From assembly GCA_033809755.1 (NCBI GenBank), contig JAPXLB010000001.1, positions 158,563-222,562 on the forward strand: 64,000 bases of DNA, given 5' to 3'. The DNA is from Lentimicrobiaceae bacterium. Its GTDB lineage: Bacteria > Bacteroidota > Bacteroidia > Bacteroidales > UBA4417. The stretch's first letter is position 1. Each line of letters starts with the position of its first letter. This document shows positions 2,687 through 56,413 of this stretch, in pieces. Position numbers and translations under genes: made by a program. The notes below the pieces were generated by a model, which did no database searches, was not told the DNA's origin, and saw nothing but the letters and a program-made list of their open reading frames with translations.

Positions 2687-3072
2687 GGGATATGGCTGTT
2701 GGCGATACGGGTTACGTGTTTCGTGTTTTGACATTTTCGGTCATTGAGTGCCGATATTGAGCGAAGCGAGATATCGGTGTATCGAAATGCCGAAAATGGG
2801 GAATAGTTTCAAGTTCTGAATTTTTCTCAATAGCCGTGTCTTTAAAGGCACGGCTATTGAAGCGAAATGCCGAAAATATTACCCCGCTCGCTTTGCAAAA
2901 GCGAACGAGCGTCAATAATAACAATTTGCTGGCGCGCTTTTGTAAAGCGTGTCAGCAAACTCCTAACTCCTCACTCCTCACTCATAACTCTTAACTCATA
3001 ACTTCAGACTTCCAAACACTCATCACCCACCACCGACCACTAACCACAAAAAAGCCAACGGCTAACAGCTCA
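2687..3072. repeat. Composite intergenic repeat island (heptamer tracts plus several REP-like palindromes)
   Basis: Palindromes at 2730-2798, 2827-2860 (TCAATAGCCGTG...CACGGCTATTGA), 2885-2911 and 2926-2958. ACTCCTA/ACTCATA, CACCnAC and AGCCAAC heptamer tracts at 2959-3072. Confidence 0.8.
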
Positions 3073-4332
3073 TTACAATTCTTCTTGCAACCACTGCATA
3101 ACTTTCTTAGTAGCACCTGTGCGAGCTTTAATATAGCTTAGGCAGTTTTGGCTTGCTTCTTTGTATCGTTGTTTATTGTTGATTAGCTCGTTAACGGTTT
3201 TCTCCAAAACAAATTGGTTGTGGACAACAGTAACAGCATCACGTTGGATAAGGTCGTATGCTTCTTGAAATTTACTCATTTTAGGACCTATAATAATCGG
3301 CAATCCGAAGGCAGCCGGTTCCAAAATATTGTGAATACCATCGCCAAAGCCACCACCAACGTACGCAATGTAACCGTATTTATAAACTTCCGAAAGCATA
3401 CCAATAGTATCCAATATCATAACTTTTGCACTCTTTGTCTCGTTAATGCTAGATTGCGTGTATCTTATGGTGTTGCACTTTGTGCTTAGCATTAGCTTCA
3501 AAATCCTTTCTTCGTTGATTTCGTGCGGTGCAATGATGTACCTTAACGGGATTTCACTGTTTTCGACCAAACTCAATATTAGTTCTTCATCTTTTTCCCA
3601 TGTGCTGCCGCCTATAAGCACCAAATTATCCTTACAAAAAGCTTCTAAAACAGGGAAATTTATATCTTTTTGCGAAACTTCAAAGACTCTGTCAAAACGT
3701 GTGTCGCCACTAATGCTGACGTTGTTTATGCTGATAAATTCTAAAAGCTGTTTTGAATCTTCATTTTGCACAAAAATATGTTTGTATCCCGAAAGTATCT
3801 TGCGAGCCCATGAGCCGTACCATCTGAAGAATATTTGTTCGGGACGGAAAATTCCTGAAATTAGCACTATAGGAATATTATTTTTTTGAAGTTGTTCAAG
3901 GATATTGTACCAAAATTCGTATTTAACAAAAAATGCTATGTCAGGTTTGGTAATTGCAACAAATTTTCTTGCATTCTTTGGTGTATCAATCGGGAGATAT
4001 AGAATAAGGTCGGCACCAACGTATGCTTTGCGTACTTCATATCCCGAAGGACTGAAAAAAGTAAGCAAAATTTTATAATCGGGGTGTTGCTTTCTAAAAG
4101 CTTCGATTATAGGTCTTCCTTGTTCAAATTCGCCAAGAGACGCACAATGAAACCAAGCTTTTTTGGTATCGGGTTTGTTGAAGCCGTTACGCTCTAAGGC
4201 GATTTTTAATCCTTCGAAATAATAATTACGACCTTTAACCCACAAGCGAGCTTTACGGTTGAAAATGGAACTTATTCTTATACCGAAGTAGTATAAGTAA
4301 ATGCCAATATTGTATAGAAACTTAGAGAACAT
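3073..4332 (-). CDS. waaA: 3-deoxy-D-manno-octulosonate (Kdo) transferase
   Basis: WFHCASLGE, TFFSPSGY, GDTRFD, YVGGGF and HNILEPA motifs. Confidence 0.93.
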   Translation of the reverse strand: MFSKFLYNIGIYLYYFGIRISSIFNRKARLWVKGRNYYFEGLKIALERNGFNKPDTKKAWFHCASLGEFEQGRPIIEAFRKQHPDYKILLTFFSPSGYEVRKAYVGADLILYLPIDTPKNARKFVAITKPDIAFFVKYEFWYNILEQLQKNNIPIVLISGIFRPEQIFFRWYGSWARKILSGYKHIFVQNEDSKQLLEFISINNVSISGDTRFDRVFEVSQKDINFPVLEAFCKDNLVLIGGSTWEKDEELILSLVENSEIPLRYIIAPHEINEERILKLMLSTKCNTIRYTQSSINETKSAKVMILDTIGMLSEVYKYGYIAYVGGGFGDGIHNILEPAAFGLPIIIGPKMSKFQEAYDLIQRDAVTVVHNQFVLEKTVNELINNKQRYKEASQNCLSYIKARTGATKKVMQWLQEEL

Positions 4333-4344
4333 CGTTAAACATAA

Positions 4345-5112
4345 TTAGTAATAATAATATTCGGTTTTTGTTTTCGGATAAAATGGCAACATCCAGCCGA
4401 CTTTGATGCTGGTAAGCATGTCGAAACGCTTTTCGTCGGCGTATTTCATATCATTGAAATAGTAAACGCGTCTGTTTTGTGTGTACGCTTGAACCGATTC
4501 AATGCCGATTTTAAAGTTTATACGTTGGTTGTTGCCTTGGTAATGCAGTCCGACATACTCAACGACTGCCGGTCCGTTGCATAAATGGTCGTAGCCCTTT
4601 TTGTAATCGCCGTCGAGTTGCGGAACGTTGTTGTTTGGTACGTCAATTCTGATTTTATGCTGCATAAAACCTGCTCCAATTTGAAACATAATACCCGAAT
4701 TTGGATTGATTTTCGGTATAGGCACAAGTTTGCCTGCCTTTACAAATGCCGTAAATCCCCTTTCCGTAAGCATAATATTGGATAAGGTTCCAAGCATATC
4801 TATCACGCCGTCTGGAGTAGATATACCGCTTAAAATAGAATCGGGGTTGTTGATTTTATCTTTGAAAATAAAATTTCCTTCCAACTCTAAATTCCACCCT
4901 GTAGCCGATTTGAATAAAAACGAACCGCCAATTTGGTGCGAAGGTCCAAAACGCTCCGAAAGGTCGCCCGAAGGGAAACCAAAACCGTAATGAACGGACA
5001 AAACGTTTATGTTCATTGAGGTATCTATTAATTTGACATGTGACCCTCGCTGCGAATACGAGTTAAATGAAATAAGAATAGCAACAAGTACCAATAGTAA
5101 GGTTTTATTCAT
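4345..5112 (-). CDS. Hypothetical outer-membrane beta-barrel protein
   Basis: Signal peptide from the likely start MNKTLLL (5112); amphipathic beta-strands; minus-strand TACCTTTG promoter at 5176-5183 argues against the longer ORF start. Confidence 0.6.
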   Translation of the reverse strand: MNKTLLLVLVAILISFNSYSQRGSHVKLIDTSMNINVLSVHYGFGFPSGDLSERFGPSHQIGGSFLFKSATGWNLELEGNFIFKDKINNPDSILSGISTPDGVIDMLGTLSNIMLTERGFTAFVKAGKLVPIPKINPNSGIMFQIGAGFMQHKIRIDVPNNNVPQLDGDYKKGYDHLCNGPAVVEYVGLHYQGNNQRINFKIGIESVQAYTQNRRVYYFNDMKYADEKRFDMLTSIKVGWMLPFYPKTKTEYYYY

Positions 5113-5324
5113 ATGGCAATATTTACGCGTTTTTATCGACAGCATGATAAAAATTGAGTAGTTACTTTTATTCTGCAAAGGTAGTAATTATTAAGTTAAT
5201 AGGTTGAAAATTTATGGACATAAATTTTTGGTGGTTGGTGATTGGTGGAGAGTGGAGAGTGGTGAATGGCATGGAACAATTAACAATGAGCACCGAAACT
5301 TTGGGGTACAATTAGCAATTGATA

Positions 5325-5633
5325 AAAGCGAGTGGGAATTTGCGAATTTGTTAAACTGTTTTGCAATAAACGAACTTCACTCTTTTCGCATGAATAATCT
5401 GCTGTGAGAAAAAAATACAATAGCCAAAAATTGAACTTCAAAAAGGATGGCATACATTTCTTCTGAATGAAGTTCGTGATGAATCCTTAGTGAGAAAGGG
5501 AAGCTCCGAGCTTGCGAGGAGATCACCCGCACGAACTTAGGATTTATGAGAACGCAATTCAGAAAAGAAATGTCAGCCTTGACTTTTTGGTTCTTTTGTG
5601 TCAAGACAAAAGAACATATAAAAAGAATAAAAC
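5325..5633 (+). mobile_element. ~310-bp non-coding fold-back repeat element, copy 1 (MITE/REPIN-like)
   Basis: Near-identical inverted copy at 54820-55130. Internal imperfect inverted repeat ACATTTCTTCTGAAT...ATTCAGAAAAGAAATGT. Terminal hairpin TTCTTTTGTGTCAAGACAAAAGAA. Confidence 0.7.
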
Positions 5634-5790
5634 CTGTAAAGCTAAAATCTTTCACACAAGTTTTTAAAAGCATACGAGCGTTGAGTGCATATTAAAGTCT
5701 TAGCTTTGCAGTATAAAAAGTGTTAATCTTTTTCAAAATAATATAATATCGAATTAAATATTTATCTTTGAACTTTTAAAACTTACAATT

Positions 5791-6930: not shown

Positions 6931-6945
6931 TAATAATGTTTACAG

Positions 6946-7722
6946 GTGGATTTGTTTTTCAGAAAATACGGCTGCGGACAAAATATTATCATTTTGCACG
7001 GATTGTTCGGTCAGAGCGATAACTGGATTCCCGTAGCCCGACACTTGGAAAAGAACTTTACAGTCTGGTTGCTCGATTTAAGAAATCACGGACAATCGCC
7101 GCACAGCGACGAGTTTAACTATTCAGTTATTGCCCACGATGTTTGCCAATTTGTTTCAAAACATAATATCACCGACTTTGTAATTGTGGGTCATTCTATG
7201 GGAGGCAAGGCAGCACTTAAAATTTCTGCCGATAATATTTGTCCTGTCAAAGCTCAAATTATTATTGATATTGCTCCCAAGCAATACCAAGTGTCCGAAT
7301 ATCATTTGAATATACTCAAATGTATGCAAAATCTGAATTTAGATGAACTGAAATATATCAGTAATGTTGAAAAAGAACTGAAACATCTGCAATTCGACGA
7401 CTTTACAATCAATTTGATAATTAAGAATTTGAAGTATGTCGATAAGAAATTAGTCTTTAAGCTGAACGTAGAAAGCATTTACAACAATATTTCCAATATT
7501 GTAGCTCCAATAACTGCAAAAAAGCCAATAGAAACCAAAACGCTGTTTATAAAAGCCGATGAGTCGGATTATATAAAAGCTGAGGATTTTGCTTTAATAA
7601 AAGAAAACTACGTAAATGCCGAGTCGCGTACCATAGCTACGTCTGACCATTATGTTCATGTTAGGCAACCGGCAGAGTTGAGTAGATTGATAAGCAATTG
7701 GCTGTTAGCTGTTGGCTATTAG
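6946..7722 (+). CDS. Alpha/beta hydrolase, YbfF-like esterase
   Basis: LHGLFG, DLRNHGQS, GHSMGG nucleophile elbow, C-terminal HYVH; GTG start. Confidence 0.88.
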   Translation: MDLFFRKYGCGQNIIILHGLFGQSDNWIPVARHLEKNFTVWLLDLRNHGQSPHSDEFNYSVIAHDVCQFVSKHNITDFVIVGHSMGGKAALKISADNICPVKAQIIIDIAPKQYQVSEYHLNILKCMQNLNLDELKYISNVEKELKHLQFDDFTINLIIKNLKYVDKKLVFKLNVESIYNNISNIVAPITAKKPIETKTLFIKADESDYIKAEDFALIKENYVNAESRTIATSDHYVHVRQPAELSRLISNWLLAVGY

Positions 7723-7944
7723 CTGGTGCGTATTCAATATTTTCGCTCACTGAGCTCGTCGAAGTGTCGAAAATATTGGAACTTCGGATCTTCACCACTG
7801 CGGTACTTCGACAAGCTCAGTAACCACAGTGGCTCAGCCCCGCAACGTCTCGAAACTTTTGGACAAAACTTCAGTTTTCCGCCTTCCAACAAAAATCTTC
7901 AAAGCCAAAACCCGCTACACATGCTTTACAAAAGCGTGCGAGCG
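7697..7944. repeat. Composite repeat island
   Basis: TTGGCTG/TTAGCTG tract overlapping the esterase 3' end. CTGAGCTCGTCGAAG (7750-7764) and CTTCGACAAGCTCAG (7806-7820) form an inverted pair. CGCTTTACAAAAGCG-family copy at 7913-7944. Confidence 0.75.
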
Positions 7945-7951
7945 AGTGGTC

Positions 7952-8431
7952 TTAATAATATTCATTGATTATCAGATTAACAGTTGCTTCGTCCTTAATT
8001 TTAGTTTTAGTGCAAAATGCAGAATGCCATAAATCTACAGAATGACAAAGACCTAAATGTAAATTGACTTTTAAATCATATAAATTTTTGCCATTTTCTA
8101 AAAATTCACTATCTTTATGAATTAAACAACCTGTTCCGCCCCACACTATAACAAATGTATGTTTTGAAAAATCAATTTTTGGCAAATTAGGAACACAAGC
8201 ACCTAAAAGGTTCTCATATTCTTCTTGAGTATTTACTATATAAACTTCAGCAGCATTTAAACAATCTTTAAGTTGGTGTGTGTGAACGTTTAGGTCAATT
8301 TCCATTATGGAAGAATGTTTAATGGCACCTTTATCACTCTCTTTGTCATTCTTGCAAGATGACAGAAAACTTAGGCTTAAAGTAGCAATTACTGCCACCA
8401 CAACTATTTTTATTAAATTAATTTTTTTCAT
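7952..8431 (-). CDS. Hypothetical lipoprotein (weak resemblance to PrcB C-terminal-like domain)
   Basis: Lipobox-like LSSC after a hydrophobic signal; YIVNTQEEY...PKIDFSKHTFVIV segment; more AT-rich than its neighbours. Confidence 0.65.
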   Translation of the reverse strand: MKKINLIKIVVVAVIATLSLSFLSSCKNDKESDKGAIKHSSIMEIDLNVHTHQLKDCLNAAEVYIVNTQEEYENLLGACVPNLPKIDFSKHTFVIVWGGTGCLIHKDSEFLENGKNLYDLKVNLHLGLCHSVDLWHSAFCTKTKIKDEATVNLIINEYY

Positions 8432-8804
8432 TTTTATATCGTTTTTAAAACTTATTACTATTTTGCCACTTTTTAAAAGGCAAGTAGCTTAAACCATTGT
8501 TTTTTGTGCCTATCCGCTTAGTTAACAAACGGATAAGCAAAGCCTATCGCCCTTTTGGCGACTTAAAAAATGTATGTATGTATGTATGTATGCAAAATAG
8601 TATCGGATTTTGTTTTGCTTAACAAACATTGGTTTAAGCTATGAGTAGAAGAGTTTTCATAACTCATTGGCGTAATAATTAAACTTGTATTTTCGCCACA
8701 AAAAAACATTGTTAAAAATATTTTTTAATAAGTTTATCTTATTCGTAATCAGTAATAATTGCTACAAAAAGCATACCGTATTTTAAAATTAGAAGGTAGA
8801 AAAT

Positions 8805-8904
8805 GGTGATTGGTGGTCAGTGGTTAGTGGTTAGTGCTTTGCACCATTCACTCATCACTCATCACTCATCACTCATCACTCATCACTCATCACCCATCAC
8901 CATC
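8805..8904. repeat. Convergent heptamer tracts (GTGGTTA-type facing CACTCAT x6)
   Basis: Seen directly: tggtgattggtggtcagtggttagtggttagtg...cactcatcactcatcactcatcactcatcactcatcactcat. Confidence 0.85.
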
Positions 8905-15234: not shown

Positions 15235-15235
15235 A

Positions 15236-16765
15236 CTATTTGTTTAGTATAATTCTTAAAGTGCTTCCTTTGCCAACAACGGAGGATTTTACAAATATTT
15301 TGCCTTTGTGATAATCGTTAATAATTCTTTTGGCAAGAGATAGTCCTAATCCCCATCCGCGTGCTTTGCTCGTGTAGCCGGGATTGAAAATAGCTTTGTG
15401 CATATTTCGGGGAATACCTTTTCCGGTATCTTCAATATCAACCGTAACGGTGTGCTCTTGTTCGGTTATAATGATATTTATCTTACCTTTTGAGCCGCCT
15501 ATTGCATCTATAGCGTTTTTAATCAGGTTTTCAATAACCCAACCGAACAGTTGTACATTAAGCGGTAGCATAATAAGATCTGACGAACTTGTAATTTTGT
15601 ACGATATTTTTTGCGAAGTGCGAGTTTTAAGGTATTTCACAACCGAATCAACGACAGAAACAATGTCGGATTGCGTGAGAGTTGGCACTGAGCCGATTTT
15701 CGAAAATCGGGAGGCGACAGTGTTAAGTCGTTCCACATCTTTTTGCATTTCGCCGACAACATTTGGCTCAACATCTTTATCTTTCAGGTATTCCGTCCAT
15801 GCTAAAAGCGAAGACAAAGGTGTTCCAAGCTGATGAGCCGTTTCTTTTGCAAGTCCTGCCCAAACCTGATTTTGTTCGCTGCGTTTTGAAGTGCTGAAAA
15901 GCATGTAAGAGATGAGAAAGAAAACGCCTATAATAGCAAATTGCAGGTACGGATAATAGCGAAGCTGAGTAAGAACTTTTGAATTTTTATAGTAAATCCA
16001 TTGGCTGCCTTTTCCTTCTATATCAAATGAGATAGGCGAATTTTCGGCTTTCATCTCATTTATAAGTTTGGTAACGTTTTCTTTATCGGATAGAATTTTT
16101 TCGGGGATATTGCCCGAAGCCACAACGCAGTTGGCGGCACTATCGTATATAATAACCGGAACCGAAGCCGCATTGTTTACAATATCGTCGTAAAAAGAGC
16201 TGATAAGCGAGTTAATCATGTCTTGTACTTCGGTAAACAGCTTAGAGTCTTTGTAGTATATGTAATTAACCTCATCTTTGTAATATCTGATGGGTATAGG
16301 CGGATAAACCGAAAATTCTTTTTCGATATAATCTTTCATACCAGGAACCGAAGTAGACGTAAAAACAGTATTTACGGCGGCTCTTATGTTTCCATCTTCG
16401 TCGGTTAAAATAACGGGAATAGTTTTATTACCTTCGATTATCAGGTTATAAAAGCTAATATCTTCATCTAATGAAGCTGCGGCTATCTTTTTTTGAGCTT
16501 CGGCGTAAAGTTCTACCTTTGCTCTTTCTTCGTCTTGAATTTGTTTAAAAAATTTATTGGTAGAAGTTACAATTTGCGAACGTTGTTTGATAGTAACAGC
16601 CCAATTATATATTCGCATTTTTTCGTCACGAGCTATCTGCATCACTAGGTAGTTCGAAACCCAAATCGAAAACATAATAATTACAACGGCAACAAGTAGC
16701 AATATTAGTTTCCAATATTGTTTTTTATTATGAAGGTCGTAGCTATTTGAATTGCCTGAATACAT
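15236..16765 (-). CDS. Membrane sensor histidine kinase
   Basis: Two TM segments, H-box ETAHQLGTPLSS, N-box ENLIKNAIDA, DTGKG and GWGLGL; ATG at 16765. No cognate response regulator in the window. Confidence 0.92.
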   Translation of the reverse strand: MYSGNSNSYDLHNKKQYWKLILLLVAVVIIMFSIWVSNYLVMQIARDEKMRIYNWAVTIKQRSQIVTSTNKFFKQIQDEERAKVELYAEAQKKIAAASLDEDISFYNLIIEGNKTIPVILTDEDGNIRAAVNTVFTSTSVPGMKDYIEKEFSVYPPIPIRYYKDEVNYIYYKDSKLFTEVQDMINSLISSFYDDIVNNAASVPVIIYDSAANCVVASGNIPEKILSDKENVTKLINEMKAENSPISFDIEGKGSQWIYYKNSKVLTQLRYYPYLQFAIIGVFFLISYMLFSTSKRSEQNQVWAGLAKETAHQLGTPLSSLLAWTEYLKDKDVEPNVVGEMQKDVERLNTVASRFSKIGSVPTLTQSDIVSVVDSVVKYLKTRTSQKISYKITSSSDLIMLPLNVQLFGWVIENLIKNAIDAIGGSKGKINIIITEQEHTVTVDIEDTGKGIPRNMHKAIFNPGYTSKARGWGLGLSLAKRIINDYHKGKIFVKSSVVGKGSTLRIILNK

Positions 16766-22193: not shown

Positions 22194-22498
22194 ATTTTGT
22201 TTGTGTTAGCGTTAAAATGTAGCGCACAAGGTGTTTGTTCACCTTATTTGCTACTTATTCTACAAAAATAAAATTTTTACAAATATAGGGTTTTGTTAAT
22301 CATTGCAAGATTAACCTTGATAAATTATTGTAATCTGTTTTATAACTGGCTGTTAGCTTTTAGCCATTAGCCGTTGGCAACAATTTCGGATGCTGAGCTT
22401 TTCTAAAATAGTGTAAGCTAATATTTTCCACACACGCTTTACAAAAGCGTGCGAGCGAAGGAAAAAAAAGAGGACAAATGAATAATTGCGAAAAAATA

Positions 22499-22528
22499 TT
22501 GCTATTTGGAAAAGTTCTTGTAATTTTG
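22499..22528 (+). promoter_or_regulatory. Bacteroidota promoter, unit 1
   Basis: TTG (22499-22501), 19 nt spacer, TAATTTTG (22521-22528). Confidence 0.7.
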
Positions 22529-22532
22529 CGAA

Positions 22533-22604
22533 CGCCTGAGGGGAGTCTGTGCTCTCCACACGATCCCGTCCTTTAGTTTTTATAATTAAAGGACGGTTTT
22601 TTTT
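22533..22604 (+). ncRNA. Candidate ~70-nt small RNA (hairpin plus intrinsic terminator)
   Basis: Follows the promoter. Hairpin GGGGAG/CTCTCC (22540-22557); terminator CCGTCCTTTA...TAAAGGACGG (22566-22596) followed by T8. Confidence 0.5.
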
Positions 22605-22750
22605 ATTTATTCTACATATCTTTATTATGGATTTATAAACGATTATTATAAATAATCCAAAATTCGTACATAGTAGTTTTTTTGCACACGCTTTACAAAA
22701 GCGTGCGAGCAAAGGGGAAAAGAGAACAAATGAATAAACGCAAATAAATA

Positions 22751-22780
22751 TTGCTATCTGGAAAAGTTTTTATATTTTTG
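22751..22780 (+). promoter_or_regulatory. Bacteroidota promoter, unit 2
   Basis: TTG (22751-22753), 19 nt spacer, TATTTTTG (22773-22780). Confidence 0.7.
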
Positions 22781-22785
22781 CAGAC

Positions 22786-22898
22786 GAAATAGTAAGAGAT
22801 TAAAAACAATTAATGCTGTCATAGGAAGACAGAGCCGCTGAAAAGCCGCTTGATTGCGTGGTTCGAGTCCCGCTAATTGTTTTTAGTCTCTTGTTTTT
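22786..22898 (+). ncRNA. Candidate tRNA-like small RNA on a 19-bp closing stem
   Basis: 22794-22812 pairs with 22874-22892. Inside: a D-like arm CTGTC-ATAGGAA-GACAG, an anticodon-like arm GCCGC-TGAAAA-GCCGC and a T-arm with GGTTCGAGTCC. Confidence 0.55.
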
Positions 22899-22984
22899 AT
22901 ATATCCTTTTTTAGAATATCTTTCACCTAACAAGGGTGGTTTTTGTCAATTATCGATAATTAACAATTATTAATTGCTAATTGC

Positions 22985-30020: not shown

Positions 30021-30956
30021 ATGTTGGTTGGACAAACATACAAACTAAAAAAAATAAAATCACCCCTGAATTATATTGGCGGAAAGGTGAAGTTATTAGA
30101 TCAAATTTTGCCTCTTTTTCCACAAGGGATTGATAATTTTATAGATTTATTTTGTGGTGGTTGTAATGTTGGCATAAATGTGAATGCAAACAAAATTCAT
30201 TTCAATGATAATCTAATTTACTTGATTGAGATGTACAAAGTGTTTCAACAGAAAAGCATAGAAGATACTCTACGCCACATTGAAAAGCGAATTAACGAAT
30301 TTGACTTGTCTTTGACAAACGAAAAAGGATATAAAAACTTAAGAAACAAATACAACAAACTAAGAAATCCTCTAGATTTATTTGTTTTGATTGCTTTCTC
30401 TTTCAATCATCAAATACGCTTTAATAATAGCCATGATTTTAATAATCCTTTTGGGCGAGAGCGTAGTAGTTTTAATCCAAGAATGCGACAAAACTTGGTA
30501 AATTTTATCCTTGCCATTAAAGAAAAGGATGTGCATTTTTCAAGCCAAGATTTCGATAAATTTAATTTTGAAAAACTAAGTAATAAAGATTTTGTTTACG
30601 CAGACCCGCCTTATTTAATAACTTGCGGAACGTATAATGATGGAAAGAGAGGGTTTAAAGGTTGGTCGGAAAGAGAAGAAAAAACATTGTTGAAGAGGCT
30701 TGATAATCTTAATGAACTGGGAGTTAAATTTGCGTTATCCAATGTTTTAGAACATAAAGGAAAAGAAAATAGTATATTAAAAGCGTGGGTACACAACCAG
30801 TCAAGCTATATTGTTAATTATTTAAATATCAATTATTCAAATTCGAACTATCAAACTATCGTGCGTGATAGAAAGGCAAGCGTCGAAGTTTTGATAACGA
30901 ATTACAAGCCCCAAAAACCAAAACAAAAATCAACACTTTTTGATGACTTATATTAA
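30021..30956 (+). CDS. N6-adenine DNA methyltransferase (D12 class; resembles the M.FokI C-terminal domain)
   Basis: KSPLNYIGGK, DLFCGG, FNHQIRFN..FNNPFG, YADPPY and EVLITNY motifs. Confidence 0.9.
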   Translation: MLVGQTYKLKKIKSPLNYIGGKVKLLDQILPLFPQGIDNFIDLFCGGCNVGINVNANKIHFNDNLIYLIEMYKVFQQKSIEDTLRHIEKRINEFDLSLTNEKGYKNLRNKYNKLRNPLDLFVLIAFSFNHQIRFNNSHDFNNPFGRERSSFNPRMRQNLVNFILAIKEKDVHFSSQDFDKFNFEKLSNKDFVYADPPYLITCGTYNDGKRGFKGWSEREEKTLLKRLDNLNELGVKFALSNVLEHKGKENSILKAWVHNQSSYIVNYLNINYSNSNYQTIVRDRKASVEVLITNYKPQKPKQKSTLFDDLY

Positions 30957-30959
30957 TTT

Positions 30960-32021
30960 ATGAGGTATATTGGTAATAAAGAAAACTTGCTTGAAAAAAT
31001 ATATCAAGTAATGCAGTCAAAAAATATTAATGGAAATTCTTTTTTTGATTTCTTTTCAGGTACAGCAAATGTTGGCAAGTTTTTCAAAAAACTAAATTAC
31101 CAGATTTATTCTTCCGATTTGCTATATTTTTCTTATGTCCTACAACGAACATATATTGAGAACAACGTGGAATTACAATTCGAAAAGTTGATGAATACAC
31201 TAAATTATAAAAGTAGAACTTTACTAGCCTCACCTTTGTACATTATATTAGAATACCTTAATCAGATAGAGCCGATAAATGGGTTTATTGCTCAAAACTA
31301 CACTCCAAGTGGAACACAACACTTAGAAATTCCCAGAATGTATTATTCAGATGAGAATGGAAAAATTATTGATGCAATCCGTCAGCAAATTGAAAATTGG
31401 AAAGTAGAAAATTTAATTTCAGAAAGTGAATATTTTGCTCTGTTGGCGTGTTTAATTGAAACAGTACCGTATTATGCTAACATTGCAGGCGTTTATGCCG
31501 CATTTCATAAAAAATGGGATCCAAGAGCAGTTAAAAAATTAGTATTACGTCCAATTGAATTTGTGATAAATAATTTTGATAATCATTGTTATAACGAAGA
31601 CTCAGTTAACCTGCTTGATAAAATAGAAGCAGATATTTTTTACTTAGACCCACCATACAACCAACGACAATATGCCCCCAACTACCATTTATTAGAGACA
31701 ATTGCAAAATATGACAATCCAGATATTAAAGGCGTTACAGGAATAAGGGCGAATTATGAAAATCAAAAATCTAAATTTTGTAATGCAATGACAGCACTGC
31801 AGGAATTAGAAAAAATTGCAAAATTTGGGAAATACAGCACTTTGATTTTAAGTTATAACAACGAAGGTATTATGCCACAAGAAGAAATAATCTCAATATT
31901 ACAAACTTTTGGAAAAGTTGATTTAATTGAGTTTGATTATACTCGTTATAAAAGTAACAGTAGGGGAAGAAGTAAACACAGAAAAATGGTTAAAGAACAA
32001 CTTTATATTCTACAACGATGA
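30960..32021 (+). CDS. N6-adenine DNA methyltransferase (D12 class; resembles the M.FokI N-terminal domain)
   Basis: MRYIGNK, DFFSGT, RMYY, LDPPYNQRQY..NYHLLETIA and SYNNEG motifs. Confidence 0.9.
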   Translation: MRYIGNKENLLEKIYQVMQSKNINGNSFFDFFSGTANVGKFFKKLNYQIYSSDLLYFSYVLQRTYIENNVELQFEKLMNTLNYKSRTLLASPLYIILEYLNQIEPINGFIAQNYTPSGTQHLEIPRMYYSDENGKIIDAIRQQIENWKVENLISESEYFALLACLIETVPYYANIAGVYAAFHKKWDPRAVKKLVLRPIEFVINNFDNHCYNEDSVNLLDKIEADIFYLDPPYNQRQYAPNYHLLETIAKYDNPDIKGVTGIRANYENQKSKFCNAMTALQELEKIAKFGKYSTLILSYNNEGIMPQEEIISILQTFGKVDLIEFDYTRYKSNSRGRSKHRKMVKEQLYILQR

Positions 32022-33406
32022 AAAAAAATCTTTGGTTTTTAACGGAGGAACGCCCCAAAAAGGAAGTTTTGGCTACTATATTTAAAAAATTCGCTGAGGA
32101 CAATGGTTTTGCTGTTTTTATTGATGTTATCCGCATTTTTCCAATTTTAGAAAATGATAAGTTCACGTTTACTTATGAAGTAGCAGGTTTTCGTTGCAAC
32201 AAAGTAAATCGTGTTTTTGTGAAAACAGTTTCAGGGAGTTCTAGTTTTGTAGATTTTATTATATTTTATCAAGAAAACGAGCCCACACAAAAAGACCAAC
32301 CAATTTATGTCATTGAAGAAACAAAAACAGACGATAGTGAAAGTCGAAACACCGGAGTTTATCAGCGTTGCACTAAATTTGTTTTCGTTGATAATTATTT
32401 TCCAAATGCGAAGAAAATAATGCTTTACCAATTGCAAGTTGAGCAAAAAGAAAATCCAACTGAAACTTATATTTTTGGGACAAGATTATTACTAACATTG
32501 GGCGTAGAGATTTTAGGTAAAAAGCTAAATGAGGAAATCTTTACGCCATTCAAAAATATTGATGAAATTATCGCTTTCAAAGACAATATGCGAAAGGCGC
32601 CAAAAGGGAACGTCCCAATTTTGCTAACAAAATCAAAAAATTGCATAGAAATTTCGGGGCGTTTGTATAAAAGTGGCGGACTTTCACACGACCCAAATAT
32701 TGGTGCATTGTCAATTATTTCTGCAGTTCTGCGTAAATTAGGTTGGAATAAAAAAATAGAAATCACACAACATGGGTTGGAGCAGAGACATGTTGGAAAA
32801 GACAATAAATTCATTCAAATAGCAAATAAGTTAAATATTTTGTTATATGGCTTAATGGTTCCAAAAGTTCAAATGAATGAGAATTATTGGAAATACGATC
32901 TTGATGGAGAGAAACTTGGAACAATTTTTATTCATTTGGTAGTTGAGAATTTTGCTAATGGGTATTCTATTTTTGAAAATCACGCAGGTTGTGAAAAAGG
33001 TTATTTTATTCCATTGGAAGGCGACCCAATTCCACTTGCAAAGTACAAAGATCGTGAGAAATATAAGGCAGGAGACAAGTCGCAAATTATAAATATTCCT
33101 GATTTGGTTTTACTCGATTTATCGAACAAAATTGTAATTGATATTGAAGGTAAAAAGTATCAATTCCGAAAAAAGGGAATAGAAGAACTTGCCCTTTATG
33201 ATGCTTTTGATGAAATATATGTCCAAAAGCACTATCCAAAATCAAAAATAGTAAGGACTGTGGTGTTATATGGAAGTGAAGAGGAGAAAATTGTCGAAAT
33301 AGAAGTCGGTTTTTTGCTTAATCAAAACGGAAAATTAATTTTGGGAGTAAAAGCACCAAAAATATTTAGGGAAGCAATAAAAAATTTATTAGATTTTTGG
33401 AGCTAA
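32018..33406 (+). CDS. Putative Type IIS restriction endonuclease
   Basis: ATGA overlap with the second MTase; E-X14-QR (EETKTDDSESRNTGVYQR) and PD-X14-EGK (IPDLVLLDLSNKIVIDIEGK) motifs. Confidence 0.7.
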   Translation: MKKNLWFLTEERPKKEVLATIFKKFAEDNGFAVFIDVIRIFPILENDKFTFTYEVAGFRCNKVNRVFVKTVSGSSSFVDFIIFYQENEPTQKDQPIYVIEETKTDDSESRNTGVYQRCTKFVFVDNYFPNAKKIMLYQLQVEQKENPTETYIFGTRLLLTLGVEILGKKLNEEIFTPFKNIDEIIAFKDNMRKAPKGNVPILLTKSKNCIEISGRLYKSGGLSHDPNIGALSIISAVLRKLGWNKKIEITQHGLEQRHVGKDNKFIQIANKLNILLYGLMVPKVQMNENYWKYDLDGEKLGTIFIHLVVENFANGYSIFENHAGCEKGYFIPLEGDPIPLAKYKDREKYKAGDKSQIINIPDLVLLDLSNKIVIDIEGKKYQFRKKGIEELALYDAFDEIYVQKHYPKSKIVRTVVLYGSEEEKIVEIEVGFLLNQNGKLILGVKAPKIFREAIKNLLDFWS

Positions 33407-40951: not shown

Positions 40952-40969
40952 ATAAACTGCTTTTTTATG

Positions 40970-41054
40970 CTGGAAGTCTGAAGTTCTGAGTTTTGAGTTT
41001 GGAGTTCTGAGTTTGGAGACTCGAAACTCGTAACTCAATACTCGAAACTAACAC
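40970..41054. repeat. Convergent GAGTT/AACTC heptamer tract
   Basis: Its right end ACTCAATACTCGAAACTAACAC is the exact reverse complement of 56310-56331. Confidence 0.8.
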
Positions 41055-43389: not shown

Positions 43390-43393
43390 TTTT

Positions 43394-45892: not shown

Positions 45893-45903
45893 GCGCTATT
45901 ATT

Positions 45904-51641: not shown

Positions 51642-51717
51642 AGTTCTGATGTAGCGCAAAAGTAACTATTATAACTCAAAAAGTCGCAATTAATTATTAC
51701 TTTTGAAAAAAATTAAT

Positions 51718-52293
51718 ATGTCCACAAACATGCAAGGTAAAGTTCCTAAAAAGCGAAATTACAATTTAGTTTTACGAAAAACACATTCCTTTCTGACGGT
51801 ATTTCTGTTTATCAACATTTCAATTATTGCGATAACAGGAATTTTATTAGGTTTGAAAAAACAAACCAAAGGAGTTATAATGCCTGTTATTGTCGAAGGA
51901 ACCACTAGCGAACTAAAACAATGGATAAGTATTGACAGCATTTACAATGTTGCAATTAATGAGTTTTTGAAGCATTATCCAGATTGTAAGGATGTAGAAA
52001 TATCGAGAATAGATATAAGGCAAAGCAAAGCGATGGCAAATGCTGTTTTTGATAAGAAGTATTTTTCGGTTCAGGTTGACGGAGCCACAGGTCAGGTGCT
52101 GTACGCAGGCAAGCGTTATTCCGATATGATTGAAAACATACACGACGGCTCAATAGTTGATATTTTGATAGGCTCAAAAACTCAATATTTTAAGATAGCT
52201 TACACTTGCCTGATGGGTTTGTCGTTGTTGCTTTTTAGCATAACAGGCTTTATGATATGGCTGAGCAAAAGGAAAAGAAAAAGGCGGACTTAA
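51718..52293 (+). CDS. PepSY-associated TM helix domain protein
   Basis: LRKTH, ITGILL, VDGATG, IENIHDG and ITGFMIW motifs; TACTTTTG promoter at 51698-51705 favours the start at 51718. Confidence 0.8.
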   Translation: MSTNMQGKVPKKRNYNLVLRKTHSFLTVFLFINISIIAITGILLGLKKQTKGVIMPVIVEGTTSELKQWISIDSIYNVAINEFLKHYPDCKDVEISRIDIRQSKAMANAVFDKKYFSVQVDGATGQVLYAGKRYSDMIENIHDGSIVDILIGSKTQYFKIAYTCLMGLSLLLFSITGFMIWLSKRKRKRRT

Positions 52294-52473
52294 TAAAAGT
52301 TGTTTTATGTAGCATTTTGTAACGTCATAAAACAACAAGCTACGGCAGAAAACACATTTTAAAGCAAATAGTTTTTTAATAATTTTAACAAATTATGCAC
52401 GAAGCTGCAGCAATAATATTTACCTTTGCAAGTAGATAAAAAAGTATAATAATAAATAAAAAATCAAATTTTC

Positions 52474-54636
52474 ATGAAAAAACTATTCTTAATAGGACTA
52501 TTGTCCATGTTAGTAAGCGTAAAGGTAGCAGAAGCAGCTGCACCCGACGAAGGCATGTGGTTGCCGATGTTTGTCGAAAGGCTCAATTACGTTGATATGC
52601 AAAAAATGGGCTTAAAGCTCACAGCCGAAGAGTTGTACAGCATCAACAATTCCAGTATTAAAGATGCTATTGTAAGCTTAGGCGGTTTTTGTACAGCCGA
52701 ATTGGTTTCGCCCGAAGGCTTGCTTTTAACCAATCATCACTGCGGATATTCAGCTATTCAAACTCACAGTAGCGTTGAGCACGACTATTTGACCGACGGT
52801 TTTTGGGCTATGAAAAAATCGGAAGAGCTACCAAACGAAGGACTTACGGTTACGTTTTTGCATCACATGGAAGATATGACTCAAAAAATTCTTAGTGTTG
52901 TAAATGATGATATGACCGAAGACGAGCGCTCCGAAGCAATTAAAAAAGAAATAGATAAGTATACAAAAGAAGCTGAACAAGACGGCAAATACGTTGTTGA
53001 GCTAAAAAGTTTCTTCAACGGAAACGAATATTATATGTTTGTTTACGAAGAATACAAAGACGTTCGTTTGGTTGGAGCACCGCCTTCATCAATCGGTAAA
53101 TTTGGTGGCGATACCGACAACTGGATGTGGCCCCGCCACACCGGCGATTTCGCTATGTTCCGTATTTACACCGCTCCCGATGGCAGTCCTGCCGAATATT
53201 CGGAAGACAATATTCCTTTCAAATCCAAGTACTTTTTACCTATTTCGATAAAAGGTTATAAAGAAAACGATTTTGCAATGATTTGGGGTTTCCCCGGAAC
53301 AACCGACCGCTACAGAACGTCAAGTGCTGTTAGTGCTACACTTAACGAAATAAATCCGGCTATCGTTAAAATGCTTAGAGCCATGTTGGACGTTCAGGAC
53401 GAAGAAATGGCAAAAAGCGATAAAGTAAGAATACAATACGCTAGCAACAACGCTAGTTTGGCTAACTTTTGGAAAAATAAATTAGGCGAAACCCGCGACC
53501 TTAAACGGTTGAACGTTGTTGAGAAAAAACGTCAGTCGGAAAAAGAACTAGAAAAATGGATAAACGCCGACCCCGCAAGAAAAGCAAAATATGGCAACGT
53601 ATTATCCGATTTTAACGAAGTTTACTCAAAATACACCGAGCAAAATATATTTCCGTTGTTGTGGAATACTCAGCTTGTTTTCTTCGGTTCGCAAGCGTTT
53701 ACACTGCCTTCAATGTCGAAAGGCATAGAAACAATTCTAAAAACCGGAGTTAAAGGCGAAGCTCTTCAAAAAGAAATGCAGTCGTACAGAGAAAAAGCTG
53801 AAGCTATTTTTAAAGATTACGACAATACCATTGAGAGAAGAGTATTGGCTACGGCATTAGAAATTTTTAGAGACGAAATTCCGACAAATCAACATCCTGA
53901 CATTTACAAAGTTATAAATTCCAAATTTAAAGGTGATATTGCAAAATTTGTCGATTATATATTCGAAAAATCGCCGTTCTTAACTTACGATAATTTCAAC
54001 AAGTTTTTGGATAAACCTTCAGAAAAAGCTATAAAGAAAGATTTGGCTGTAGAAATGTACAATTCGTTTGTAATGAATTTTATGAGCGTTCAGGGTGGTG
54101 CTAAAGAATTGGCAACAAAAAATAACGCAACCAGACGCTTGTATTTGGCTGCTCTTCGCGAGATGTATCCCGATAAAAGCTTTTATCCCGATGCAAACTC
54201 AACTCTTCGTATGACTTACGGAAAAGTTATAAGCTACTATCCCGCCGATGCTGTACATTACGATTATTACACAACCATTGAAGGTGTTATGGCTAAAGAA
54301 AATCCGTCAGACCCCGATTTTGTTGTACCCGAACGTTTAAAACAACTTTATTACAAAAAAGATTTCGGTCAGTATGCTGAAAACGGAACCTTACCTGTTT
54401 GTTTCTTAACCGATAACGATATTACCGGCGGAAACTCAGGAAGTCCTGTTTTAGATGGAGATGGAAACCTTATCGGTATTGCATTCGACGGCAACTGGGA
54501 AGCAATGAGCGGCAATATTTTGTTTGAACCCGAACTACAACGTACAATCAACGTTGATGCAAGGTACGTTTTATGGGTGATTGACAAATATGCCGGAGCT
54601 AAAAATATAATGGACGAACTTACAATAGTTAAGTAG
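52474..54636 (+). CDS. S46 family dipeptidyl peptidase, DPP7-type
   Basis: DEGMW, TNHHC, DNWMWPRHTGDF and ITGGNSGSP; FDGNWE has Gly at the S1 position as in DPP7, rather than Arg as in DPP11. TACCTTTG promoter at 52421-52428. Confidence 0.92.
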   Translation: MKKLFLIGLLSMLVSVKVAEAAAPDEGMWLPMFVERLNYVDMQKMGLKLTAEELYSINNSSIKDAIVSLGGFCTAELVSPEGLLLTNHHCGYSAIQTHSSVEHDYLTDGFWAMKKSEELPNEGLTVTFLHHMEDMTQKILSVVNDDMTEDERSEAIKKEIDKYTKEAEQDGKYVVELKSFFNGNEYYMFVYEEYKDVRLVGAPPSSIGKFGGDTDNWMWPRHTGDFAMFRIYTAPDGSPAEYSEDNIPFKSKYFLPISIKGYKENDFAMIWGFPGTTDRYRTSSAVSATLNEINPAIVKMLRAMLDVQDEEMAKSDKVRIQYASNNASLANFWKNKLGETRDLKRLNVVEKKRQSEKELEKWINADPARKAKYGNVLSDFNEVYSKYTEQNIFPLLWNTQLVFFGSQAFTLPSMSKGIETILKTGVKGEALQKEMQSYREKAEAIFKDYDNTIERRVLATALEIFRDEIPTNQHPDIYKVINSKFKGDIAKFVDYIFEKSPFLTYDNFNKFLDKPSEKAIKKDLAVEMYNSFVMNFMSVQGGAKELATKNNATRRLYLAALREMYPDKSFYPDANSTLRMTYGKVISYYPADAVHYDYYTTIEGVMAKENPSDPDFVVPERLKQLYYKKDFGQYAENGTLPVCFLTDNDITGGNSGSPVLDGDGNLIGIAFDGNWEAMSGNILFEPELQRTINVDARYVLWVIDKYAGAKNIMDELTIVK

Positions 54637-54666
54637 TCTGTTATTTTTTGTATTTTTTCATAACGT

Positions 54667-54699
54667 AGGGGGAAAGCCGAATGGCTTTCCTCTTTTTTT
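54667..54699 (+). terminator. Intrinsic terminator of the S46 peptidase gene
   Basis: AGGGGGAAAGCC-GAAT-GGCTTTCCTCT followed by a T-run. Confidence 0.85.
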
Positions 54700-54819
54700 G
54701 TCATTAAGTTCGTCCCTTGCTTGCACGTTTTTGCAAAGCGTGTGCAAGAATTAAATGCATTAATATTTTTTAAAATTAATTACTCTATTGAGCAATAAAC
54801 GCTTTGAATAAGCTGTTTT

Positions 54820-55130
54820 GTTTCAATCTTTTTTTATGTTCTTTTGTCTGTGACACAAAAGAACCAAAAAGTCAAGGCTGACATTTCTTTTCTGAATTGC
54901 GTTCTCATAAATCCTAAGTTCGTGCGGGTGATTCCCGAGCAAGCTCGGAACTTCCCGTTCTCACTAAGGATTTATTTCGAACTACATTCAGAAGAAATGT
55001 ATGCCGTCCTTTTTAAAGCTAAATTTTGGGCTATTGTTCTTCCTTGCTATGGCAGATAGCTTGAACGAAAAGAGTGAAGTTTACTTATTACAAAACAGCT
55101 CAACAAATTCGCAGACTTTCGCTCGCTTTA
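54820..55130 (-). mobile_element. ~310-bp fold-back repeat element, copy 2
   Basis: Inverted near-identical copy of 5325-5633; bracketed by palindromes at 54716-54748 and 55120-55146. Confidence 0.7.
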
Positions 55131-55150
55131 CAAAAGCGAACGAGCGGAAG

Positions 55151-55630
55151 TTAATAATTATTTTTAGCTTCGTTTAATATAGTCTCAATATCCTCATCAA
55201 AAAATGTCTTTATCAAGTAATATTCTTTATTATTCACTTTAAATTTCAACATTTCTTTATTTTGTTTTTTAGCCATTCCAAATTCACAAGGCATAAGTCT
55301 GATGTCTTTTATTTTAATACTAGCACTTTTACTTTTTAAATAAAAAAATTTAAATGTATTGAAATATAATATATCTTTTTCTATATGAATGTTTTCTACA
55401 ACTTTATTAATAATTTCTATTTTACTTATTCGAATATGTACACCTAATACAAATAATATAAATAATACGATACACTGAACATAAAATGGAACCTCACTAA
55501 TAACACTATAACTATATAGTAAGTGAGCTGTTAAAAGAACAAATAAAAAAAGAGATATTACAAATATTATCATGTTTGTTAAATGTAATTTGTAAAATTT
55601 GCTAGCATTCAGGTTTGTTTTCAAATTCAT
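55151..55630 (-). CDS. Hypothetical 2-TM membrane protein, paralog A
   Basis: Two TM segments followed by a soluble domain ending KEYYLIKTFFDEDIETIL; very AT-rich. Confidence 0.65.
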   Translation of the reverse strand: MNLKTNLNASKFYKLHLTNMIIFVISLFLFVLLTAHLLYSYSVISEVPFYVQCIVLFILFVLGVHIRISKIEIINKVVENIHIEKDILYFNTFKFFYLKSKSASIKIKDIRLMPCEFGMAKKQNKEMLKFKVNNKEYYLIKTFFDEDIETILNEAKNNY

Positions 55631-55708
55631 AGATTTATAAATTATATTGTTTCAACTTTTAACCAATCACGTTAAATATGATGATTATTATATATAGACA
55701 TAATCATA

Positions 55709-56209
55709 TTAGCTATTATGAATATTGTTAATGTTGTTTAATTTTGTTTTTAATATAGTCTCAATATCTTCATCAAAAAATGCTTTTATCAAGTAATATT
55801 CTTTGCTATTTATTTTAACCCTAAAAGCAGATTCCTGTTTTTTATCAAATGTATCAATATTGTGCGGTATTAGTTTTATGTCCTTTATATCACAACTGTC
55901 TTTTTTACTTTTTTTACATAAAATATTAAATGTTTCTATTTGTACAGAATTTTCTCGCATTTCTATTGAGCTTGTTATTTTATTTACAAATGCTAACATT
56001 CTAATTATTATAAACAAAAATAAAATTATTCCATAGCACAGTGTAAACCATGAAACTATCAACAAGTATATATATGAATCTGCTCCTAAAAACATTAAAA
56101 ATGATAGTCCTCCAACCAAAATAGGGGAGAGACAAATGTGTTGTATAATTCTCTTTCTATATGTTAAGTAATATTTAATACCATTACTATTTGTAGAATA
56201 TTTACTCAT
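55709..56209 (-). CDS. Hypothetical 2-TM membrane protein, paralog B
   Basis: Same layout, ending KEYYLIKAFFDEDIETIL; minus-strand TATCTTTG promoter at 56232-56239. Confidence 0.65.
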   Translation of the reverse strand: MSKYSTNSNGIKYYLTYRKRIIQHICLSPILVGGLSFLMFLGADSYIYLLIVSWFTLCYGIILFLFIIIRMLAFVNKITSSIEMRENSVQIETFNILCKKSKKDSCDIKDIKLIPHNIDTFDKKQESAFRVKINSKEYYLIKAFFDEDIETILKTKLNNINNIHNS

Positions 56210-56277
56210 GGGTGTCTATAATAATTCCCTTCAAAGATAATCTGTTTTTCATAAAACAAATATATTTTGCTAAAACC

Positions 56278-56413
56278 CGCTCGCTTTGCAAAAGCGAGCG
56301 AGCGGAGGTGTGTTAGTTTCGAGTATTGAGTATAGAGTTTCGAGTTCCAAAACTCATAACTCATAACTCATAACTCAAAACTCCCCCGTAACCCGCACCC
56401 CGCAACTCGTAAC
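56278..56413. repeat. CGCTTTGCAAAAGCG palindrome plus heptamer tracts
   Basis: CGCTCGCTTTGCAAAAGCGAGCGAGCG (56278-56304), then GAGT/ACTCATA x3 and CCCGTAA/CCCGCAA tracts. Confidence 0.8.

Follow-up and report, generated by a model that had tools for sequence, protein, structure and literature searches.

Does a family of REP-like palindromes act as cassette boundaries for the unrelated accessory genes that it borders? This has been suggested in an initial annotation of a 64-kb stretch (hereafter the window) of a Lentimicrobiaceae bacterium assembly that is 91% complete (GCA_033809755.1, G000), together with the notion that an enzyme acting in trans uses these palindromes to capture or shuffle gene and small-RNA cassettes. 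To address this question, the window loci were compared with their alleles in a sister genome (G064), while a read-based comparison (runs X4/X5) covered window positions 53600-57600; for the lipoprotein and sRNA loci, G064 was the only comparator.

The palindrome family itself is real. Its core, CGCTTTRCAAAAGCG, is matched eight times in the window with no more than two mismatches (at 2889, 2935 on the minus strand, 7922, 22435, 22689, 54726 on the minus strand, 55124 and 56282), against 0.61 matches expected and with none of 100 shuffles reaching eight, and all seven palindrome stretches that were folded give hairpins (z -2.8 to -6.1). The hairpin consists of a 9-10-bp stem, a 3-nt loop, a foot reading CGCTC, CGCTG or TGCTG, and a GAGCG tail. 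Two weaker members concern a 310-bp element: the 5653-5680 copy scores below threshold without a gap and requires a 1-nt gap, yet its position matches that of intact copies in other 310-bp elements, and the half-site at 5325-5334 is likewise backed by intact copies that occupy the same spot in other copies of the element. The G000 genome carries 41 strong copies, all intergenic and none within ORFs of at least 150 aa, and their density in the window is about 7-fold above the genome average (8 versus 1.15 per 64 kb). Convergent gene junctions account for 14 of the 30 junctions with a REP, compared to 112 of 557 overall. Tail-inward doublets occur seven times in G000 and ten times in G064, and the copies share their mosaics with four or more further palindrome families; of these, three flank a Y1 gene of their own in G000. 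Copies are gained and lost rapidly, 13 REP junctions being common to both genomes, nine being specific to G000 and eight to G064, and entire mosaics of one genome are replaced in the other, with ragged ends. The core is at background level in 60 sampled relatives (drawn without G064), including 36 family genomes scanned, and pattern scans of metagenome and viral records, from which records close to the source genome were possibly excluded, returned no match.

Table 1. Palindrome copies and neighbouring features of the window.
Feature	Position	Strand	Remarks
REP copy (hairpin + GAGCG tail), left half of tail-inward doublet	2885..2911	+	same doublet at orthologous G064 site
REP copy, right half of doublet	2926..2958	-	core match and fold
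310-bp repeat element, truncated REP half-site (5325-5334) and degenerate REP (5653-5680) at ends	5325..5680	-	
REP copy, tail 7 nt from lipoprotein stop	7913..7944	+	core match
Accessory 159-aa lipoprotein-like ORF, 29% GC	7952..8431	-	no Pfam match
REP copy ahead of promoter-sRNA unit 1	22431..22457	+	core match; present in G064
Unit 1: promoter-like segment, short two-hairpin RNA candidate, terminator	22458..22684	+	fold z -4.6; kept in G064
REP copy ahead of unit 2	22685..22710	+	present in G064, divergence ~8 nt past tail
Unit 2: promoter-like segment and cloverleaf RNA candidate	22718..22966	+	fold z -5.3; absent in G064
Accessory island, two D12 methyltransferases and 462-aa ORF, counter-example without nearby REP	30021..33406	+	
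REP copy (private variant) just past DPP7 terminator; left edge of variable slot	54716..54748	-	
310-bp repeat element (AT-rich leader), flanked by tail-outward REPs	54749..55119	+	
REP copy, left boundary of swapped cargo	55120..55146	+	divergence 1-2 nt past tail in G064, X4/X5
Cargo B: two paralogous membrane-protein ORFs (55151-55630, 55709-56209) and upstream promoter-like box	55147..56277	-	
REP copy, right boundary of swapped cargo, A2M side	56278..56304	+	X4/X5 contigs match again from 56279

The enzyme associated with this family was found in the sister genome. A RAYT gene flanked by the same palindrome had been predicted, and such a gene is present in G064 rather than in G000 (G064:C28:16173-16703), encoding a 176-aa protein that scores 100.7 bits on NF047646 (cut-off 80), carries the motifs NHIH, WQ and YIHQNP, and is bracketed on both sides by tail-outward copies of the window palindrome. 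Judged by motifs and length, this protein would belong to TnpA-Y1 subclass 2.6 (NH[LIV]H, WQ, YIH[QN]NP, ~179 aa, Bacteroidota). The palindrome is multicopy and extragenic, it flanks the RAYT gene in inverted copies and it forms doublets and mosaics; the family thus represents the REPs of a Bacteroidota RAYT of subclass 2.6, and the 5' GT[AG]G foot of canonical GTAG REPs (subclasses 2.2, 2.4 and 2.5) is absent from it. A related tail-outward hairpin lies beside the gene in 25 of the 30 closest RAYT relatives and the strict pattern in at least 26 of 80 overall, the latter being a lower bound because the hairpin detector misses CCACACG-type hairpins visible by eye. A search of the G000 assembly did not yield a cognate RAYT (best match 26%, E 0.004), and the four Y1 genes of this genome were rejected as the cognate enzyme, each being flanked by a different palindrome and none by the window REP. 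The copies in G000 may therefore be orphans or have an unassembled or transient gene acting on them; REP persistence after RAYT loss has been described (PMC3333891, PMC8266576, 10.1101/2021.07.10.451892). In G064 the RAYT and its REPs appear to have been inserted, one arm of another palindrome having been destroyed, and the RAYT may therefore move gene-sized DNA.

Several neighbourhood relations noted in the initial annotation were confirmed. Both sRNA-like units and both 310-bp elements adjoin REP copies, a two-gene block of 20-23% GC is enclosed by the copies at 55120 and 56278 as direct repeats, and a GAGCG tail in the same relative orientation is found 7 nt from the stop at 7952 and 4 nt from that at 55151. 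Such proximity of stop codons to a hairpin is what would be seen if the palindromes were attC-like sites of a tyrosine recombinase in an integron-like system, and a homologue of cargo B does sit in an attC-like array in another genome (G279), pointing to a cassette-type gene pool as the source of this cargo. However, the hairpin flanks a Y1 HUH gene and not a recombinase, gene-site-gene-site arrays are lacking, and the two stop-adjacent window copies are the only ones of the 41 strong copies at a distance of no more than 60 nt from an ORF end, so that a REP following the stop codon as a rule was rejected. Furthermore, G000 has attC-like sites of its own, which form a different, longer TAAC...GTTA hairpin present at 12 of 84 cargo junctions versus 8 of 473 other junctions. 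An integron-like role for the palindromes is largely refuted and highly improbable. As to candidate recombinases, G000 has three PF00589 genes (C2:167158, C4:140301 and C12:886), with no PWM match within 15 kb of any of them.

The statement that the palindromes sit at the edges of most accessory DNA proved too broad, since the largest accessory block, the R-M-like island at 30021-33406, is free of REPs within 7 kb; the G064 inserts at window 40952-41053 and 43390-43393 have no REP copy either. Filled and empty alleles whose breakpoints coincide with the palindrome were observed at the intergenic slot between DPP7 and alpha-2-macroglobulin (A2M), at the left border of sRNA unit 2 and at C1:93792 outside the window, where a 221-aa gene is inserted at a REP edge, but not at most other loci. 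The lipoprotein locus, 7694-8904, is missing from G064 with breakpoints at the flanking gene ends, and the 310-bp element of 5325-5680 is absent there, where 5268-5706 has been replaced with breakpoints away from the REP. Here the prediction failed: at esterase-ribF and at the 5.3-kb element, it is the entire intergenic stretch that differs by replacement, and the breakpoints fall into gene ends or heptamer tracts. The 310-bp element as an intrinsic REP cargo was rejected, its leading hairpin belonging to a family-wide repeat (33 of 44 family genomes); the element is common to G000 and G064 at one of 26 junctions. As regards the small RNAs, the candidate of unit 2 combines a long closing stem with a tRNA-like T-loop, receives no ARAGORN call and has no match among 400 genomes of the order, and Rfam has no entry for the candidates of either unit or for the 310-bp element. 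No RNA data set was listed as matching the stretch, which says nothing about its expression.

The DPP7-A2M slot exists in three alleles (G000, G064 and X4/X5), whose cargo changes at the hairpins with breakpoints within 1-3 nt of hairpin edges in all three. Cargo B of G000, the ORFs of which are 36% identical to each other with a GC content of 20-23% and a promoter-like box (TATCTTTG) at 56232-56239, is replaced by ~1.43 kb of other DNA in X4/X5, and the adjacent 310-bp element by a ~40-nt spacer in both the first doublet of G064 and X4/X5. The G064 slot harbours a 1.85-kb insert flanked by a private 22-bp hairpin variant, that of the 54716..54748 REP, which occurs once in G000, twice in G064 and nowhere else; a 13-nt A2M-side border sequence is repeated at the end of this insert, and just 2 nt are common to the A2M-side border and the foot of the DPP7-side hairpin where the two are joined. 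This junction is internal to contig C51 and has no more than 2 nt in common with the alternative path, and an assembly artefact was rejected for it by inference. Between G000 and G064 the identity of the 310-bp element (99.6%) and of cargo B (~98.7%) exceeds that of DPP7 (96.7%), suggesting recent transfer of the unit.

These alleles, with their edges at hairpins, the private hairpin duplicated around the insert, the recurring 13-nt border and the identity gradient, are what would be seen if the RAYT itself excised and inserted REP-bounded cargo as single-stranded circles, the palindromes being cassette ends at some loci. The 221-aa gene at C1:93792 fits this scheme, and so does the report of E. 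coli TnpA-REP cleaving over 400 nt away from its REP and carrying out strand transfer in vitro (PMC3333891). We nevertheless consider it unlikely, given that G000 yielded no cognate RAYT and that no single common cleavage dinucleotide can be read from the junctions (on the foot-first strand, TC at three, TG at another and neither at the X4/X5 left joint). In addition, two cargo stops point toward the tail and two toward the head, cargo-gene homologues in other genomes (two genes, six loci) lack such a hairpin by pattern, and the E. coli mobilome data of 10.1101/2024.07.17.603846 showed no REP circles, albeit with a method that misses ssDNA. The broader version, in which a subclass-2.6 RAYT moving from one Bacteroidales genome to another uses dispersed hairpins as transposon-like ends and, via ssDNA circles, stacks or swaps kilobase gene and small-RNA cargo with promoters at fixed REP slots, DPP7-A2M among them, is unlikely. 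A literature search, with subscription literature mostly outside its coverage, found no description of cargo capture by REP/RAYT systems, and the in vitro RAYT binding and cleavage tests that it retrieved concern groups 2 and 3.

Genome-wide, a REP is present at 12 of 84 cargo-variable gene junctions (OR 4.5), and the enrichment persists after adjustment for orientation (OR 3.7, p=0.0035), in favour of RAYT capture, but is lost after matching for intergenic length (OR 1.7, p=0.33); such matching amounts in part to conditioning on the outcome, since cargo comes with non-coding DNA of its own. The remaining 72 junctions are REP-free, which counts against RAYT capture and, together with copies that do not track stop codons as attC sites do, against cassette boundaries as a general rule. 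Cargo sites make up 11 of 28 junctions of the window REP versus 5 of 40 of other palindromes (p=0.019). Exact direct repeats of at least 20 bp accompany 8 of 60 one-sided cargo events, and only two of these eight involve the window REP, one being a duplication of a whole mosaic. The loss of enrichment upon length matching would be explained if REPs and accessory genes simply gathered in the same long, dispensable intergenic regions past terminators, the hairpins being the last common sequence of alleles that move through homologous recombination in DPP7 and A2M. The ragged replacement of whole mosaics, the sharing of the 310-bp element at a single junction, its family-wide leading hairpin and the background level of the core in the family agree with this coincidence. 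It leaves unexplained the duplicated private hairpin and the 2-nt junction in G064, and the caveat on length matching also counts against it; we regard it as decidedly unlikely.

Taken together, it appears somewhat probable that RAYT-spread REPs in fast-turning repeat mosaics serve as passive recombination anchors, with slot cargo being exchanged by host recombination. A Bacteroidota RAYT has likely spread the REP hairpin into repeat mosaics at gene ends, where, by analogy with known RAYT biochemistry, it would nick single strands near the hairpin and re-join them, thereby copying REPs and doublets. Short-homology recombination or template switching at hairpins may then create new cargo junctions, after which homologous recombination in flanking core genes would carry entire alleles further. 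Accessory DNA between bracketing copies is likely exchanged by the host and not by a dedicated capture enzyme. In E. coli, REPs have been reported as junction hotspots (22 of 90 junctions), which the authors credit to secondary structure (PMC3161906). Some observations sit uneasily with passive anchoring: the DPP7-A2M breakpoints are sharper than passive recombination needs, the G064 2-nt junction resembles a circle junction, the window REP is more tied to cargo than other palindromes are, and the RAYT is apparently itself inserted in G064. The cassette idea is partly supported, holding at one locus (DPP7-A2M) and not generally. As for a trans-acting enzyme that shuffles cassettes, the RAYT with the same palindrome and the DPP7-A2M breakpoints speak for it, but the junctions may be the work of host recombination and not of the enzyme.

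This case provides a hairpin consensus for a little-described Bacteroidota RAYT subclass, and it bears on the host role of RAYT-REP systems. It also offers an intact 176-aa enzyme and three natural alleles with exact junctions. If RAYT capture holds, integron cassettes would have an HUH-based counterpart, and RAYT-REP systems a concrete benefit for their host; if the RAYT moves no gene-sized cargo, what remains is a REP family of the ordinary kind at a variable locus.

Among known systems, TnpA-Y1 subclass 2.6 (Quentin et al. 2018, PMC6006769; Bertels RAYT group 5) is alike in its Bacteroidota hosts, ~179-aa length and NH[LIV]H/WQ/YIH[QN]NP motifs, as well as in genes flanked by non-GTAG hairpins ("atypical secondary structures") with copies elsewhere in the genome. 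The text of that paper gives neither a hairpin consensus nor a link to cargo, whereas here the foot reads CGCTC or CGCTG, the host assembly lacks the enzyme, which is apparently newly inserted in G064, and a gene slot with swapped content lies between REP copies. E. coli REP/BIME with TnpA-REP and Pseudomonas REPINs, as described in PMC3333891, PMC8266576 and 10.1101/2021.07.10.451892, share intergenic short-foot hairpins, doublets, mosaics, local clustering, strain-to-strain turnover and persistence after RAYT loss; the present family differs in lacking GTAG, in numbering only ~40-65 copies and in being interspersed with heptamer tracts and four or more other palindrome families. The RAYT considered here is not at a fixed site, whereas REPtrons, according to published descriptions, do not transpose as a unit. 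Integron attC cassettes and CALINs resemble the slot in their AT-rich one- or two-gene cargo beside a hairpin and direct repeats around the insert, but here no integrase link was seen, there are no arrays, the cargo has its own promoter, the site is not fixed at the gene 3' end, and a separate attC-like hairpin family exists in G000. The REP junction hotspots (Lin et al. 2011, PMC3161906) likewise have their junctions at hairpin stems, the homology spanning 2-30 bp; the events reported there are amplifications and deletions of resident DNA, whereas at the present locus foreign genes are swapped between hairpins in natural populations.

The palindromes in the window belong to a REP family of the RAYT type whose copies turn over fast. 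They lie amid mosaics that combine several palindromes, heptamer tracts and a 310-bp element, and in one slot the cargo changes at the hairpins. The REP unit has a 9-10-bp stem capped by a 3-nt loop; its tail, GAGCG/CAGCA, corresponds on the opposite strand to a CGCTC/TGCTG foot. Its recurrence within the window, proposed in the initial annotation, is borne out by eight core matches against 0.61 expected, and the copy coordinates and stop-codon distances (7 nt and 4 nt) reported there are correct. Across the source genome G000 (2.29 Mb, 23 contigs, 91% complete), the core occurs 30 times with at most one mismatch, and a weight-matrix scan yielded 66 hits under a loose threshold, 41 under a strict one; none of the 41 lies within an ORF of at least 150 aa, and only two, the stop-adjacent window copies, come as close as 60 nt to the end of an ORF. 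The further claim that the palindromes edge most accessory DNA fails at an AT-rich island without any copy; this island, likely a restriction-modification system, encodes a pair of D12 adenine methyltransferases along with a 462-aa ORF, and has no orthologues in the examined part of the sister genome G064. The window corresponds to C1:158563-222562 of G000, whose gene content, together with the RAYT relatives, suggests Bacteroidales, and the stretch is found in metagenomes from digesters, bioreactors and landfills.

The four Y1/RAYT-like genes of the 2.3-Mb G000 are each flanked by their own, distinct palindrome, three of these families also contributing to intergenic mosaics, and the 91% complete assembly holds no close homologue of the cognate RAYT, the transposase expected to act on the window hairpins. 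The anticipated RAYT flanked by the same palindrome is present in G064, which was found by a search with the 310-bp element and shares 1350 reciprocal orthologues with G000 (mean amino-acid identity 93%). It encodes 176 aa, scores 100.7 bits against NF047646 (cut-off 80), carries the motifs NHIH, WQ and YIHQNP, and is flanked on both sides by tail-outward copies of the window palindrome. At the orthologous G000 site a different palindrome is intact, one arm of which is replaced by the RAYT unit in G064, so that the unit was likely inserted there. The same arrangement with a strict-pattern hairpin recurs in 26 of 80 RAYT relatives compared, 25 of these belonging to the 30 nearest; farther out, most loci inspected show, by eye, a related CCACACG-type hairpin, and one relative (L232) carries the exact core. 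Of 44 other genomes in the family, 36 contain RAYT homologues.

Coordinates and arrangement of the features compared
Feature	Location	Arrangement
Y1 transposase genes, G000	C5:110653; C8:90179; C1:104652; C4:196787
RAYT gene, G064	C28:16173-16703
Nested HUH systems, G064	C28:15676-16110 and 16173-16703	RAYT unit within another Y1 gene's palindrome, immediately upstream of that gene
Orthologous site, G000	C5:110603-110618	palindrome intact
DPP7-A2M, window and run X2		REP(-), 310-bp element, REP(+), cargo B, REP(+)
DPP7-A2M, G064		REP(-), short spacer, REP(+), promoter-lipoprotein-OMP-terminator block, then window arrangement repeated
DPP7-A2M, runs X4/X5		REP(-), short spacer, REP(+), ~1.43 kb other DNA; match to window resumes at 56279
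310-bp element	window 54820-55119; 5340-5650
5.3-kb element	window 5268-5706
Lipoprotein region	window 7694-8904
Shared upstream module with (TATG)n tract	window 8400-8725; C8:108498-108835; C15:22306-22544	ahead of unrelated accessory secreted-protein genes
Tandem lipoprotein genes, G064	C10:11976-13136	G000 empty at C5:74901-74913
Rearrangement point	window 22380; G064 C56:24690 and C16:11150	heptamer tract immediately left of REP-sRNA block
Cloverleaf RNA candidate	window 22785-22905
AT-rich island	window 30021-33406
Kilobase-long mosaics, G000	C8:15100-23000; C13:63465-64584 and 67276-69203; C7:147700-149250	REPs, heptamer tracts, 310-bp element, second ~190-bp TTCTTTGGACAAGCAAAG repeat
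L319, cargo-B membrane-protein homologue	G279:C6:2942-5788	inside array of attC-like TAAC...GTTA hairpins

The expected exchange of cargo at palindromes is observed between the DPP7 and alpha-2-macroglobulin (A2M) genes, where three alleles differ at the hairpins. The block specific to G064 has 31% GC; the cargo size in metagenome runs X4 and X5 was computed from record coordinates, and each run contributes one 16,766-nt contig, from two studies and possibly one strain. The 22-bp hairpin TGCACGTTTTTGCAAAGCGTGT occurs once in G000 and exactly twice in G064, on either side of the insert. The last 13 nt of the insert, GCTAGCAGCGGTG, are also found after the A2M-side hairpin of G064, and they meet the hairpin foot via a shared TG. 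Such a junction would be expected if a circle of the whole slot had integrated, and also from a microhomology event. That a subclass-2.6 RAYT uses dispersed hairpins as transposon-like ends, swapping kilobase cargo as single-stranded circles, is unlikely, and our literature search found no paper describing RAYT-bounded gene cargo. Identity between G000 and G064 is 99.6% in the 310-bp element and ~98.7% in cargo B (two membrane-protein ORFs), compared with 96.7% in DPP7 and ~95% in A2M.

Genome-wide, 1223 syntenic core-gene junctions were scored against G064 (rebuilt for comparison, 2.22 of ~2.3 Mb), 84 being cargo-variable and 473 both invariant and holding 100 nt or more of non-coding sequence (the other 666 were unused); DPP7-A2M was left out because G064 contigs break inside it. 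REPs are present at 12 of the 84, the RAYT site included, and at 17 of the 473 (OR 4.5, p=4e-4); among seven classes of control repeat the OR ranged from 0 to 3.7, with p=0.03 in one. The enrichment persists after adjustment for gene orientation (OR 3.7, p=0.0035) and falls to OR 1.7 (p=0.33) after adjustment for non-coding length, which partly conditions on the outcome. That REPs and cargo just share a habitat is, in our assessment, quite improbable. A longer, different attC-like hairpin is tied to cargo more strongly than the REP (12/84 versus 8/473, OR 9.7), and an integron-like recombinase acting on the REP palindromes themselves appears most improbable. Judged by eye from part of their sequence, the 12 REP junctions include two with the cargo edge at the REP (the RAYT site and C1:93792), one with the edge 18 nt away (C17/R68) and one with it inside a duplicated REP-containing mosaic (C8:75811), the remainder being ragged mosaic replacement. 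Exact direct repeats of at least 20 bp accompany 8 of 60 one-sided events, two of the eight including the REP, and 17 of 30 REP junctions differ between the two genomes. Since one sister genome and four runs were compared, independent events are few.

Active capture of cargo by the RAYT, as in the cassette model, would be rather unlikely: DPP7-A2M changes at hairpins, but the lipoprotein region and the 5.3-kb element, where palindrome breakpoints had also been expected, are replaced wholesale in G064 with none at a REP. At sRNA unit 2, missing in G064, the prediction holds for the left end, where divergence begins ~8 nt past the tail of REP copy 22685, and not for the right, which lies in heptamer repeats; the locus is also rearranged, its neighbours being MBL-OMP in G000 and an rsmI-like gene-OMP in G064. 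The tandem lipoprotein genes of G064 share the upstream module and signal peptide of the window lipoprotein; between them stands a doublet of the sister CCACACG-type hairpin, tails outward, with the tail facing the first gene's stop. The module with its (TATG)n tract is possibly a phase-variable promoter.

The 310-bp element has 24 copies in G000 and 17 in the examined part of G064, and both genomes have it at just 1 of 26 orthologous junctions. Its fold has long stems nested one inside another (z -6.6, REPs included), and Rfam has no match for it; its leading hairpin also stands at the head of related long elements, present in 33 of 44 family genomes and frequently accompanied by a second, inverted hairpin copy ~420 nt off. 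The cloverleaf RNA candidate is closed by a stem of ~20 bp, has a GGTTCGAGTCCC T-loop, follows a promoter-like segment that is a duplicate of the one in unit 1, and returned no tRNA call (ARAGORN), no Rfam family and no match in 400 order genomes.

With slightly better than even confidence, we consider that hairpins are spread by the RAYT, while cargo is joined at them by short-homology recombination and alleles spread through the flanks. Hairpins would spread by nicking and strand transfer, demonstrated in vitro for other groups (PMC3333891, PMC8266576); short-homology recombination at hairpins might then create cargo junctions, by analogy with E. coli REPs, which hold 22 of 90 junctions (PMC3161906), and homologous recombination in the flanks could subsequently spread alleles. 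The literature consulted also included PMC3733652, PMC5581495, PMC2884548, 10.1101/2021.07.10.451892 and 10.1101/2024.07.17.603846. The G064 RAYT motifs match subclass 2.6 of Quentin et al. (PMC6006769), which describes Bacteroidetes genes bordered by atypical hairpins with further copies elsewhere and whose supplementary REP table may include the present hairpin type already; the REP-RAYT pair adds to this already described subclass.
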